From assembly GCF_057098645.1 (NCBI RefSeq), contig NZ_CM169472.1: a stretch of 64,000 bases of DNA. One strand, given 5' to 3'. Numbering within the stretch: the stretch's first letter is position 1; each line of letters opens with the position of its first letter. A program made the position numbers and the translations under genes. This document shows positions 34,779-45,396 of the stretch, piece by piece. The notes beneath the pieces were generated by a model. It made no database searches and was not told where the DNA came from. It saw nothing but the letters and a program-made list of their open reading frames with translations.

Positions 34779-34841
34779 AACGACCTACGTTAATTACCTC
34801 ATTGACGGCATGAAGTGTATCAAAATGAAATGAACAGGATA

Positions 34842-34857
34842 TGTGCGACCACTCACA
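34842..34857. promoter_or_regulatory. CRP-like site TGTGC-N6-TCACA in the tdc promoter region
   Basis: tgtgcgaccactcaca about 65 bp upstream of the tdcA start; fits the consensus TGTGA-N6-TCACA. Confidence 0.5.
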
Positions 34858-34966
34858 AATTAACTTTCAATACTTTCCAGAGTATCGTCATGTCAATTAA
34901 ATGCCTTTAAATATCAACAAGTTAAAGTATAAAAATCAGCATAAACCCTGATTTTTGTCAAAAAAA

Positions 34967-35311
34967 ATGACGGGGATAACCATATTTTATGGCGATAACA
35001 TCATTCGTTATGTGGTTAATACAAAAAAGAGGCTGAGACCATATTTCAAGCAATTACCGGATAATTACCAGGCAAAATTTGAGTTAAATTTAATGAGCAA
35101 GTTCTCAAATTTTATTATAAATAAACCATTTTCAGCGATAAATAATGCGGCACGTCACATTTTTTCACGCTATTTGTTGGAGAACAAACAATTATTTTAT
35201 CAATATTTTAAAATTTCGAATACAGGTATTGATCATCTCGAACAATTGATTAACGTCAACTTTTTCTCTTCTGACAGGACGTCATTTTGTGAATGCAATC
35301 GTTTTCCATAA
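34967..35311 (+). CDS. tdcR: TdcR, small activator of tdc (start codon uncertain)
   Basis: AT-rich ORF 34955..35311 divergent from tdcA. Confidence 0.6.
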   Translation: MTGITIFYGDNIIRYVVNTKKRLRPYFKQLPDNYQAKFELNLMSKFSNFIINKPFSAINNAARHIFSRYLLENKQLFYQYFKISNTGIDHLEQLINVNFFSSDRTSFCECNRFP

Positions 35312-35566
35312 ATTCTTCTCCCCTCATAGGCGACGAATAGCATTTTGTGTTGAGGATCACAAAATGAATAATTGCTGGTCGCCGCGATAAGGTCAGACAA
35401 AGACAACAAGGGAAATTTTCACAGAGCTTTTGATCGGCGTAGGCCACAGAATGTTGCTTCGTTTACTGTAACGCCGGGTAAATGAGCGTTTTTTGATAGT
35501 GCGAAAGAACCCTGCGAGGAAAATAAGCATCTATTATTGTTTGTCATGATGACAAGGCAGGCATCA

Positions 35567-36106
35567 ATGAAAGGCTTCCCAATTGCACATATTTTTCACC
35601 CTTCAATCCCACCAATGCATGCAGTGGTTAACAATCACAATAGAAATATTGATTATTGGACGGTAAAAAGAAAGTTTGCAGAAATTGTCTCCACCAATGA
35701 CGTTAATAAAATATACAGTATAAGTAATGAACTGCGGAGAGTATTATCTGCAATTACTGCATTGAATTTCTATCAAGGCGATGTTCCTTCTGTCATGATC
35801 CGAATCCAACCGGAAAATATGAGTCCATTCATCATAGATATTTCTACAGGAGAACATGATGATTATATCATACAAACATTAGATGTAGGCACTTTTGCAC
35901 CTTTTGGCGAACAATGTACTTGCTCAGCCGTCAATAAAAAAGAGCTGGAATGTATTAAGGAGACGATTTCTAAGTATTGTGCAAAATTCACCCGAAAAGA
36001 AGCCATCTTAACACCCCTTGTGCACTTTAATAAAACCAGCATTACTTCAGATTGTTGGCAAATTCTCTTTTTTTCACCCGATCATTTTAATAATGATTTT
36101 TATTGA
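35567..36106 (+). CDS. yhaB: YhaB, uncharacterized protein in an AT-rich island
   Basis: ORF 35537..36106; start chosen at MKGFPIAHIF. Confidence 0.7.
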   Translation: MKGFPIAHIFHPSIPPMHAVVNNHNRNIDYWTVKRKFAEIVSTNDVNKIYSISNELRRVLSAITALNFYQGDVPSVMIRIQPENMSPFIIDISTGEHDDYIIQTLDVGTFAPFGEQCTCSAVNKKELECIKETISKYCAKFTRKEAILTPLVHFNKTSITSDCWQILFFSPDHFNNDFY

Positions 36107-36127
36107 TTATTTATAAAGGATAAAATA

Positions 36128-37315
36128 ATGTTCCCTGTTTCATCAATTGGTAATGAATTTAGTAGTGATTTAGTCCGTCGGAAAATGAATGATCTTCCTG
36201 AAAGCCCCATAGTTAATAACCTCGAAGCACTAGCACCAGGTATAGAAAAACTAAAACAGACCTCTATTGAAATGGTCACTTTACTTAACGCGTTACAACC
36301 AGGTGGGAAATGTGTTATCACTGGTGATTTTCAAAAAGAATTAGCGTACTTACAAAATGTAATTCTTTATAATGATTCGTCTCTTCGTATGGATTTTTTT
36401 GGTTATAACGCCCGAATTATTCAACGATCGGACAATACCTGCGAACTTACAATTAATGAACCGTTAAAAAACCAGGAAATATCCACAGGCAATATCAATG
36501 TTAATTGTCCATTGAAAGATATTTACAATGAAATCAGGAGGTTAAACGTAGTTTTTAGTTGTGGAACTGGAGGTATAGTTGATCTATCCTCTCTGGACTT
36601 ACGGAATGTCGATTTAGAACTTTATGAGTTTACAGATAAACATATGGCCAATGCAATTTTAAATCCTTTTAAATTGGATGACACAGATTTTACTAATGCC
36701 AACATGTTTCAGGTAAATTTCGTTAGTTCAAAACAAAACACCACAATCTCCTGGGATTATTTACTAAAAATAACGCCTGTTCTAACAAGCATTAGCGATA
36801 TGTATTCTGAAGAAAAAATTAAGCTTGTCGAAAGTTGTTTAAATGAGCTTGGAGATATTACCGAAGAACAATTAAAAATCATGAGATTTGCAATTATAGA
36901 ATCTATACCAAGAGCAACTCTAACAGATCAATTAGAAAATGAATTAACAAAAGAAATATATAAAAGCTCATCGAAAATCAACAATTACTTGAACAGAATT
37001 AAATTACCAGAGATGAAAGGATTCTCATCAGAAAAAATAGATTATTACATCGATATAATCATTAAAGATTATGAAAGCGTCAAAGAAAATACTTATCTTT
37101 TCGATCCAAAAATTAATTACAATACAGATTTAAATATAGAGGGTTCTAGCTCAGAGGAATTCCTTTCAGATAATACACTCGAGAAAGACGAAAATTCTCC
37201 TGACAATTGCTTTGAGGTTGTAAAATATAACACATATGAAGCATATAACTCAGAGAAGCAATATTTTACCAGAGAGGACTATACGTATGATTACGACCTT
37301 TTAAATGCAATATAG
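36128..37315 (+). CDS. yhaC: YhaC, uncharacterized protein, AT-rich, with a pentapeptide-repeat-like stretch
   Basis: 395-aa ORF; N/D/L-rich segment LRNVDLELYEFTDKHMANAILNPFKLDDTDFTNANMFQVNF. Confidence 0.75.
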   Translation: MFPVSSIGNEFSSDLVRRKMNDLPESPIVNNLEALAPGIEKLKQTSIEMVTLLNALQPGGKCVITGDFQKELAYLQNVILYNDSSLRMDFFGYNARIIQRSDNTCELTINEPLKNQEISTGNINVNCPLKDIYNEIRRLNVVFSCGTGGIVDLSSLDLRNVDLELYEFTDKHMANAILNPFKLDDTDFTNANMFQVNFVSSKQNTTISWDYLLKITPVLTSISDMYSEEKIKLVESCLNELGDITEEQLKIMRFAIIESIPRATLTDQLENELTKEIYKSSSKINNYLNRIKLPEMKGFSSEKIDYYIDIIIKDYESVKENTYLFDPKINYNTDLNIEGSSSEEFLSDNTLEKDENSPDNCFEVVKYNTYEAYNSEKQYFTREDYTYDYDLLNAI

Positions 37316-37430
37316 ACTTAATAACTTCTTACAAAGTCTATTATTAATACCGTAGATATTCATCTTACCCTGTGCACCAAAAGCAAAAACTTATCGACGC
37401 GGGTTTGAAACTGATGGCAACCGCAAAAAT

Positions 37431-37528
37431 GCCTGATGCGCTACGCTTATCAGGCCTACGCCATCTCTGCAATATATTGAATTTGCGTGCTTTTGTAGGC
37501 AGGATAAGGCGTTCACGCCGCATCCGGC
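37431..37528. repeat. REP/BIME elements
   Basis: gcctgatgcgctacgcttatcaggcctac and taggcaggataaggcgttcacgccgcatccggca. Confidence 0.6.
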
Positions 37529-37582
37529 ATGAATAAAGCGCACTCAACAGTCTGAAACCCGCCGGAACGGTTTATTACGTAC

Positions 37583-37808
37583 ATCAGGTGAAACTGACCG
37601 ATAAGCCGCTTTCTTTTGGGTCTAGCGTCGTGGACAGTCATTCATCTTTCTGCCCCTCTAAAAGCAAAAACCCGCCGAAGCGGGTTTTTACGTAAATCAG
37701 GTGAAACTGACCGATAAGCCGCTTTCTTTTGGGTATAGTGTCGTGGACAGTCATTCATCTTTCTGCCCCTCCAAAAGCAAAAACCCGCCGAAGCGGGTTT
37801 TTACGTAA
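37583..37808 (-). repeat. Two tandem 113-bp repeats downstream of rnpB, each copying the rnpB 3' end plus a terminator hairpin
   Basis: Units 37583..37695 and 37696..37808 are near-identical and each contain aaaacccgccgaagcgggttttt; the rnpB 3' end (from 37809) is a third, partial copy. Confidence 0.85.
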
Positions 37809-37811
37809 ATC

Positions 37812-38189
<378 letters not shown>

Positions 38190-44596: not shown

Positions 44597-44932
44597 ATGC
44601 CCGCTAATGCTCGCTCTCACGCTGTACTGACCACTGAATCAAAGGTCACGATACGCGGACAAACAACTATCCCCGCGCCAGTGCGTGAGGCCTTAAAACT
44701 GAAGCCAGGCCTGGACAACATTCATTACGAAATTCTGCCTGGTGGGCAAGTATTTATGTGCCGACTGGGAGATGAACAGGAGGATCATACTATGAATGCA
44801 TTTTTGCGTTTTCTGGATGCAGATATCCAGAACAACCCGCAAAAAACTCGTCCATTCGACATTCAACAAGGAAAGAAACTTGTCGCTGGCATGGACGTCA
44901 ACATTGATGATGAGATTGGCGACGACGAATAA
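44597..44932 (+). CDS. prlF: PrlF (SohA) antitoxin, AbrB/SpoVT-type
   Basis: ORF 44456..44932 trimmed to MPANARSHAVLTTESKVTIRGQTTIP.. (111 aa). Confidence 0.85.
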   Translation: MPANARSHAVLTTESKVTIRGQTTIPAPVREALKLKPGLDNIHYEILPGGQVFMCRLGDEQEDHTMNAFLRFLDADIQNNPQKTRPFDIQQGKKLVAGMDVNIDDEIGDDE

Positions 44933-45396
44933 TGGATTTTCCACAAAGGGTTAATAGTTGGGCGCTATATGCTCATCCCTGTTTTCAGGAAACCTACGAC
45001 GCTTTAGTTGCCGAAGTCGAGACATTAAAGGGAAAAGATCCTGAAAATTATTAGAGAAATGCCGCCACAAAGTTATTGGCAGCAGTTCACAAAGTGATTG
45101 AGGAGCATATCACGGTCAATCCATCATCGCCGGCATTCCGTCATGGCAAGTCGTTAGGCTCTGGGAAAAATAAAGACTGGTCACGGGTAAAATTTGGTGC
45201 TGGTCGTTATCGTCTCTTCTTTCGTTATAGTGAAAAAGAGAAAGTCATCATTCTGGGATGGATGAACGATGAAAACACTCTTCGCACCTACGGTAAAAAA
45301 ACAGATGCCTATACCGTATTCAGCAAAATGTTAAAAAGAGGACATCCTCCTGCCGACTGGGAAAGCCTCACCCAAGAGACAGAAGAAAACCATTGA
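44932..45396 (+). pseudogene. yhaV: yhaV toxin (ribosome-dependent RNase) with in-frame TAG at codon 41
   Basis: ATG at 44932 overlaps the prlF stop; MDFPQRVNSWALYAHPCFQETYDALVAEVETLKGKDPENY then TAG at 45052..45054; same frame continues as ..AAVHKVIEEHITVNPSSPAFRHGK.. to 45396. Confidence 0.8.

Follow-up and report, generated by a model that had tools for sequence, protein, structure and literature searches.

The closest described counterparts of the locus treated here are the AT-rich, acquired genes of Escherichia coli K-12 that are silenced by H-NS and known as 'promoter islands'. Our subject is the tdcR-yhaB-yhaC block, which occupies positions 34955–37315, between tdcA and rnpB, of a 64,000-nucleotide stretch of contig NZ_CM169472.1 (assembly GCF_057098645.1; this whole stretch is called the window). 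The block shares with the K-12 genes a low guanine-plus-cytosine (GC) content, a restricted distribution and published H-NS occupancy, and the tdcA/tdcR region and yhaC are both in the published list. Chromatin immunoprecipitation on microarrays (ChIP-chip) in K-12 places H-NS on promoter islands at the tdcA/tdcR intergenic region and along a 706-bp stretch in yhaC, with occupancy class 'K' for the former and class 'A' (all studies) for the latter, and the promoter-island genes concerned are predicted to be foreign by Nakamura's method, Lawrence's method and GIST, that is, from composition and codon usage (PMC3661553). An earlier note on this DNA, made from the letters alone, had proposed a check against H-NS ChIP data, and these published results supply it. 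The block differs from other acquired K-12 islands in several ways: mobility genes, a tRNA attachment site and terminal repeats are all missing around yhaBC, only about 2 kb is involved, set in the repeat region 3′ of rnpB, and tdcR is part of a layer that is older than yhaBC.

The three genes are themselves not new. Two papers (PMC13168631 and PMC7064181, citing Schweizer & Datta 1989; Hagewood et al. 1994) describe TdcR as a positive regulator of the tdc operon, which disposes of the earlier remark that the function of tdcR is unknown. The 72-residue product encoded in the window is TdcR itself, scoring 170.7 bits against the NCBIfam TdcR equivalog NF008507 (cut-off 100). The yhaB-yhaC pair appears in a published list as an operon that is young, homogeneous and without a known function (PMC12218254). 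Gene names, K-12 annotation, AT-richness, predicted foreign origin, H-NS binding and young age are already published, and the details that we add to these known main points are incremental: a two-layer structure, an insertion in E. coli sensu stricto that is eroded in about one fifth of genomes, purifying selection on YhaB and YhaC despite silencing, and a ten-unit pentapeptide segment that Pfam cut-offs miss. We consider it reasonably likely that yhaB-yhaC is an H-NS-bound, E. coli-specific two-gene insertion of selectively maintained orphans, dispensable and fast-evolving, lying beside tdcR as the older layer.

The low-GC block appears to comprise two evolutionary layers

The AT-rich stretch corresponds to a part of the E. 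coli chromosome that is already annotated, tdcR-yhaB-yhaC. Gene names and starts follow RefSeq, as given for K-12 and for a strain 99.9% identical to the window, and the principal features are as follows.

35093–35311, plus strand: tdcR, 72 amino acids, GC 0.30 (NCBIfam NF008507, RefSeq)
35567–36106, plus strand: yhaB, 179 amino acids, isoelectric point 6.4, orphan (Pfam PF27690 / UCP004546, from precomputed tables)
36128–37315, plus strand: yhaC, 395 amino acids, isoelectric point 4.5, orphan (NCBIfam NF007262), starting 21 bp past yhaB
about 35430–37358: predicted E. coli-specific insertion with yhaB-yhaC, approximately 1.9–2.2 kb, its left edge uncertain (about 35376–35500)

The GC content of the block is 0.335, against a mean of 0.502 for the 64-kb window (standard deviation 0.042 among windows of the same size). 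It is the GC minimum of the window, only 0.4% of same-size windows being equally low and every one of these overlapping the block, and its base composition lies clearly below the genome background, as in xenogeneic islands. GC at third codon positions is 0.27–0.32 in tdcR, yhaB and yhaC, compared with 0.42–0.62 in tdcA, tdcB, tdcC, garK, garR and garL, and Asn, Ile, Lys, Tyr and Phe together make up 35–46% of the residues of the three products. The contrast in composition that the earlier note had remarked on, both in AT content and in Asn/Ile/Lys-rich products, is therefore borne out. The low-GC zone begins upstream of 34955, being already apparent in the 3′ end of tdcA and in the tdcA-tdcR spacer.

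Open reading frames (ORFs) were found at 34955–35311 (118 amino acids, TTG start), 35537–36106 and 36128–37315, reproducing the positions in the earlier note. The exception, as coding sequence, is the TTG extension of tdcR: because stop codons interrupt its 46 codons (34955–35092) in other Escherichia taxa, the extension is not a conserved coding region.

The edges of the insertion were located by BLASTN and MAFFT comparison with E. ruysiae (loci L010 and L012) and Escherichia sp. E4930 (L013). Homology to these taxa extends past tdcR to approximately 35375–35430 and restarts in the rnpB 3′ repeats, which in E. ruysiae and E4930 start within about 130 bp after tdcR. No remnant of yhaB or yhaC was found between tdcR and rnpB in either taxon, even with 7-nucleotide BLASTN words. 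Since yhaBC is missing without scars at a site of conserved synteny, the insertion appears to be specific to E. coli sensu stricto. The tdcR ORF, by comparison, is intact in both sister taxa, and TdcR relatives were found in E. coli, Shigella, E. ruysiae and Escherichia sp. E4930, so that absence from sister taxa at a conserved site holds for yhaBC and not for tdcR. These results suggest that the low-GC block is made up of an older tdcR layer and a younger yhaB-yhaC layer, and they separate what had been treated as one block of three ORFs. The AT-richness and restricted taxonomic range are in keeping with the earlier suggestion of acquired DNA.

Protein searches gave the same range. Whether 5.8 billion proteins were searched by word index or 1.84 billion cluster representatives were searched exhaustively with phmmer, relatives of YhaC were confined to E. 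coli and Shigella, the lowest identity among them being 64–65%; the word-indexed search likewise found relatives of YhaB only in E. coli and Shigella. The sole YhaC match from elsewhere, in the phmmer search, was a true pentapeptide-repeat protein aligned to residues 150–198 (E = 3.6e-5). A scan of contigs from species-representative genomes for YhaC returned two E. coli contigs only, mis-binned in Collinsella and Bacteroides metagenome-assembled genomes; the E. coli representative presumably carries the yhaC deletion described below.

Conservation of tdcR appears to act at the nucleotide level

We compared tdcR (35093–35311) with its counterparts in E. ruysiae (L010, 6001–6219) and E4930 (L013, 6061–6279). 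The ratio of non-synonymous to synonymous substitution rates (dN/dS) between E. coli and these taxa is approximately 0.9–1.0 (for example, 21 non-synonymous and 5 synonymous differences), and the synonymous rate (dS) is unusually low, at 0.14–0.16 compared with 0.32–0.59 in tdcA, tdcB and garK. The ORF stays open across taxa, and its perfectly conserved blocks include an FNR-type site (see below) and the last 33 nucleotides. The high dN/dS combined with the low dS indicates that conservation appears to lie in the nucleotide sequence rather than in the protein. This pattern raises the question of whether the 'TdcR' effect might be exerted partly by cis-acting DNA.

yhaB and yhaC appear to be real genes under purifying selection

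The two genes lie on the same strand, 21 bp apart, with an AAGGA ribosome-binding site for yhaC, as expected of an operon. When the window was set against a divergent haplotype of this locus from another E. coli, dN/dS was 0.26 for yhaB (dS 0.47) and 0.38 for yhaC (dS 0.56), against 0.00–0.05 in the flanking genes (dS 0.07–0.14). Compared with K-12, the values were 0.03 for yhaB (dS 0.08) and 0.27 for yhaC (dS 0.21). Between haplotypes, dN/dS ranges from 0.03 to 0.26 for yhaB and from 0.27 to 0.38 for yhaC, with dS as high as 0.63. By this evolutionary test yhaB and yhaC are both real genes under purifying selection.

At the same time the locus is dispensable, with about one fifth of E. coli genomes eroded to scars. 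At least 80% of yhaC is present in 4314 of 5426 complete E. coli genomes, always as one chromosomal copy, and O157:H7 is among the strains in which it is intact. Less than 80% is present in about 1090 genomes, and 25 have nothing. Every genome sampled from the group with less than 80%, including ATCC 25922 and BEN2908 (both of which we take to be phylogroup B2), retains only small yhaC fragments at the original site, indicating secondary loss. Strain D10 retains the initial 103 bp of yhaB together with two parts of yhaC, a 63-bp piece and the 3′ end, a pattern that points to several deletions after acquisition. Thousands of database entries are YhaC fragments that share end points (groups P0042, P0031, P0030 and P0064; 4019 entries, for example, end at residue 221), which suggests a common interruption, or assembly break, within yhaC in some lineage.

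Such erosion could mean that yhaB and yhaC are functionless, silenced foreign ORFs drifting to loss, in which the pentad periodicity of YhaC described below is the fossil of a longer repeat protein. The several separate deletions behind the roughly 20% of scarred genomes would fit this, as would the frequency of frameshifted YhaB and truncated YhaC variants in databases, the binding of the region by H-NS in K-12 (PMC3661553), a constraint weaker than that on the neighbouring genes (dN/dS 0.01–0.08) and the position of the two genes in a region listed for the genome-reduced strain DGF-298. Drift is hard to reconcile, however, with a dN/dS of 0.24–0.38 at a dS of approximately 0.5–0.6, which is far from neutral, with ten pentad centres and a C-terminal motif kept between alleles that are 65% identical overall, or with full-length ORFs in some 80% of complete genomes. 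We therefore regard decay as unlikely, though it is the alternative that fares best.

The allelic structure of the locus has also to be considered. Nucleotide identity between the two haplotypes falls to 71–89% within 35200–37800, against 97–100% in the flanks, and the YhaC protein alignment contains at least three allele classes together with mosaics such as P0027, indicating that YhaC alleles recombine. A divergent allele with 65% amino acid identity sits at the identical chromosomal locus, and a study of 92 wastewater E. coli genomes reported yhaC to be one of the genes ranking highest for positive selection (PMC9110714). One might accordingly propose that the two genes form a conflict locus, for example an anti-phage or toxin/immunity-like pair, whose diverged alleles are under diversifying or balancing selection. 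Amino acid divergence of up to 35% at a fixed site, mosaics, presence/absence polymorphism and the greatest variability at repeat positions expected to face outwards (i+1 and i+2) would all be compatible with this. Against it, neither protein has a PADLOC or PHROG match and no toxic or catalytic domain was detected; when a diversifying region was sought segment by segment in YhaC, dN/dS was below 1 in all five segments; and the very divergent class is rare, only 19 of the 5426 genomes falling in the 60–80% identity band. The published signal may have been inflated by recombination between deep alleles. A conflict locus consequently seems improbable to us.

YhaC carries a putative pentapeptide-repeat segment

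YhaC scores 858.8 against its NCBIfam equivalog NF007262 (cut-off 765). Three parts of the protein are distinguished.

36248–36562, plus strand: YhaC residues 41–145, predicted N-terminal alpha/beta domain (helix, five strands, helix), the only part modelled with a predicted local distance difference test (pLDDT) score of about 50–76
36578–36727, plus strand: YhaC residues 151–200, ten tandem pentads (VDLSS LDLRN VDLEL YEFTD KHMAN AILNP FKLDD TDFTN ANMFQ VNFVS)
37280–37312, plus strand: YhaC residues 385–395, C-terminal motif YTYDYDLLN(A/E)I, with invariant columns

The closest known proteins with which the middle segment can be compared are the pentapeptide-repeat proteins (PF00805/PF13599; Rfr fold, for example NP275-NP276, PDB 2j8k). 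The pentad centres of YhaC read LLLFMLLFMF and the preceding (i-1) positions DDDEHIKDNN, giving the Leu/Phe/Met centres and mostly Asp/Asn at i-1 that are found in this family, and the segment has the at least eight tandem A(D/N)LXX-type pentads with a Leu or Phe centre by which the family is recognised. The longest period-5 run in YhaC is ten units, compared with 4–6 for other periods, and none of 20,000 shuffled sequences reached ten. None of the ten centre columns varies between alleles whose overall identity is 65%, and the most variable columns are i+1 and i+2, which face outwards in the known fold.

Profile comparisons agree, provided that the profile is trimmed to the repeat region. A trimmed 70-column profile matched solved pentapeptide proteins (2j8k, E = 7.1e-6; 4yfo, 1.3e-5), with ten pentapeptide-repeat chains below 0.002, and hhalign paired the repeat region with a bona fide pentapeptide protein at 91% probability (E = 1e-6). 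With the full-length profile, pentapeptide matches in the PDB were marginal (E 0.04–1) and the top match, to a dehydrogenase, was spurious. The earlier note had seen a stretch resembling pentapeptide repeats, and this much is upheld by the ten pentads and the trimmed profile (E = 7e-6); the Pfam matches that it proposed to look for with HMMER stayed below threshold, PF13599 scoring 14.1 bits against a gathering cut-off of 38 (E 0.049) and PF00805 scoring 12.4 against 20.2 (E 0.12).

YhaC departs from typical members of the family in falling under these cut-offs, in having repeats over only 50 of its 395 residues (13%), and in carrying bulky residues (Tyr, Lys, Phe, Leu) at several i-2 positions. 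Nor was the beta-helix fold recovered by AlphaFold2, where pLDDT was 22–29 over residues 150–200 with no strands consistent with a beta-helix, from an alignment of only 17 near-identical sequences. Taking the periodicity, conservation and profile matches together, residues 151–200 are best read as a genuine, short and divergent pentapeptide repeat, most likely a beta-helix, with approximately 2.5 coils if the usual fold is adopted.

The C-terminal motif is invariant at nine of its 11 positions in the 17-allele alignment, residues 388 and 394 being the ones that vary, whereas the 60-residue acidic tail that precedes it is the most variable part of YhaC (dN 0.37). The motif holds a Tyr-x-x-Leu core with acidic residues before it.

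The general plan of YhaC, with an N-terminal alpha/beta domain, pentapeptide repeats from about residue 150 and a short C-terminal motif, may resemble that of the Salmonella pathogenicity island 2 effector PipB2 (N-domain, PDB 2lez). YhaC could in principle be a cryptic, remote relative of PipB2-type type III effectors, with YhaB as its partner or chaperone. A direct comparison was made with a PipB2 query, of which residues 17–161 were verified to be 100% identical to PDB 2lez. It gave a BLASTP match in the repeat region only (E 0.058), an hhalign probability of 0.5% and shuffle z-scores of 0.3–0.5 for the N-domain; with no significant similarity by any of the three, membership in the PipB2 group was rejected. 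PipB2 also has far more repeats, YhaC lacks the LFNEF motif, neither a secretion system nor a host target is known for it, and the plans were compared by way of a low-confidence model of YhaC. That YhaC belongs with PipB2 therefore has little chance of being right. We give equally slim prospects to the wider version, in which yhaB-yhaC is the relic of an effector-like module of PipB2-like plan, with the YxxL-type core in YTYDYDLLNxI and alleles kept by a variable host or competitor partner, YhaC then being a cryptic secreted or interaction protein of commensal E. coli that lies concealed under H-NS in K-12. Were either the effector or the conflict reading true, these two y-genes of K-12 would take on a role in interactions with hosts or competitors, for which the present evidence is weak.

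Qnr and MfpA consist almost wholly of several tens of pentads and form a long dimeric rod. A DNA mimic of this type, binding gyrase or another DNA-binding protein, is very improbable for YhaC despite its pentapeptide segment, its acidic isoelectric point and the Gene Ontology label 'response to DNA damage' quoted for yhaC (PMC9110714), since its ten pentads are too short a stretch, most of the protein is non-repeat, and no Qnr, MfpA or McbG chain was found among the profile matches at E below 1; the mention of DNA-mimic proteins in the earlier note is thus not followed here. Each of the four rival readings, decay, conflict locus, effector relic and DNA mimic, is weaker than that of a maintained, E. 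coli-specific insertion.

Regulation and a model for the locus

The regulatory features upstream of yhaB are listed below.

34779–35092: tdcA-tdcR divergent intergenic region, AT-rich, with a perfect TGTG-N8-CACA CRP-type site at 34842–34857
35246–35259: FNR-type site TTGATTAACGTCAA, inside the tdcR coding sequence and conserved in E. ruysiae and E4930
35343–35364: palindromic CRP site TTTTGTGTTGAGGATCACAAAA, 32 bp past the tdcR stop codon and about 200 bp upstream of yhaB

The sequence TTGATTAACGTCAA is the predicted site beneath an FNR ChIP-chip peak labelled yhaB in K-12 (PMC1802558), and Footprint-seq data include TTTTGTGTTGAGGATCACAAAA among the CRP footprints, with yhaB as the assigned gene (PMC12871828). 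A mutation at 3,267,652 in gallium-evolved K-12 falls within a 21-nucleotide site listed by Footprint-seq at 3,267,646, and the same table contains a crp mutation (PMC13160365). Peaks for sigma-38 and sigma-32 obtained by systematic evolution of ligands by exponential enrichment have been reported in yhaB (PMC5493296), and IS5 recurrently inserts into the tdcA/tdcR spacer during evolution of K-12 in the mouse gut (PMC7518454). In five Escherichia haplotypes, including those of taxa without yhaBC, TTTTGTGTTGAGGATCACAAAA is near-invariant, the only change being at one loop base in two of the five; its retention in taxa without yhaBC indicates that the CRP site would predate the insertion.

We propose the following model. 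tdcR and its AT-rich flanks would be a small gene and regulatory region of the genus Escherichia, divergent from tdcABCDEFG. A piece of approximately 1.9–2.2 kb with a foreign composition, carrying the two-gene operon yhaB-yhaC, may then have been acquired by the ancestor of E. coli sensu stricto and have come to lie in the repeats downstream of rnpB. In K-12 the published ChIP data show H-NS coating the region, which would be all but silent. We infer that expression of yhaBC would need relief of H-NS silencing together with input from the conserved CRP and FNR sites upstream; these inputs would convey the anaerobic, carbon-limited gut signals that also drive the neighbouring tdc operon. YhaC would be soluble and acidic, its N-terminal alpha/beta domain being followed by the ten-pentad segment, a helical region and then an acidic tail that ends with the conserved motif. 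It is probably a non-enzymatic binding protein built around the short pentapeptide segment, perhaps an adaptor, with YhaB a plausible partner.

Several results weigh against this model. No flanking direct or inverted terminal repeats or transposon-like ends were found around the insertion, and neither was an integrase, a tRNA site or a donor, so that the case for horizontal transfer is one of composition and distribution; PHROGs likewise gave no phage family match for the yhaB-yhaC products. A clean ancestral deletion of yhaBC in the sister taxa may have occurred instead of an insertion. The high dS could reflect old alleles or a faster neutral rate in unexpressed AT-rich DNA, and the numerous truncated YhaC and frameshifted YhaB entries in public assemblies fit decay in some lineages. 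The TTTTGTGTTGAGGATCACAAAA CRP site may act on tdcR or on the tdc operon and not on yhaBC, and a scan of the region for promoter and terminator consensus sequences gave counts not above those in shuffled sequence.

The protein side of the model faces similar difficulties. When the three proteins were scanned against Pfam, NCBIfam, PADLOC and PHROGs, nothing was found beyond the NCBIfam equivalogs that bear their own names and the sub-threshold pentapeptide matches. The structure predictions that the earlier note called for were run, and both yielded unusable AlphaFold2 models, with a mean pLDDT of 38.5 for YhaB (five sequences) and 39.9 for YhaC (17 sequences), the alignments being too shallow because the proteins have no relatives outside E. 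coli. The binding role of YhaC and its partnership with YhaB are thus our reading, made with both models at low confidence. A fold search with the unusable YhaB model gave no match below E 0.5, and RidA/YjgF fold matches at E 1–3 were treated as noise.

Flanking sequences and other parts of the window

To the right of the insertion lie rnpB and its repeats.

37359–37406: degenerate rnpB 3′ repeat fragment (family D2, 82% identical to 37660–37687), at the right edge of the predicted insertion
37431–37529: pair of repetitive extragenic palindrome (REP)-type sequences between yhaC and the rnpB repeats, seen in the sequence
37555–37834: 2.5 tandem copies of a 113-bp unit repeating the rnpB 3′ end and terminator (Tandem Repeats Finder, 95% matches, score 504)
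37812–38188, minus strand: rnpB, RNase P RNA, class A (Rfam RF00010, 318.6 bits)

The palindromes, which we take to be REP elements from their consensus, explain why a 3.1-kb query from this region matched a median of 28 places per genome; they are missing from the O157:H7 version of the spacer. The copy number of the 113-bp unit also varies, K-12 having more copies, O157:H7 fewer and E. ruysiae approximately two. The rnpB 3′ repeat was reportedly described in the 1980s.

Elsewhere in the window, the yhaV toxin gene of the prlF-yhaV pair (44932–45396) has an in-frame stop at codon 41, and the annotation of the 99.9%-identical strain shows prlF, upstream of it, as intact. Downstream of kbaY, at approximately 54000–58000 (L014, 39037–43020), lie malX-like, MalY/PatB-like, LysR-family and metallo-beta-lactamase-fold genes and a truncated phosphotransferase system IIB gene, at a position where K-12 presumably carries the agaBCDI genes. 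An AT-rich junction is present at 53701–54400.

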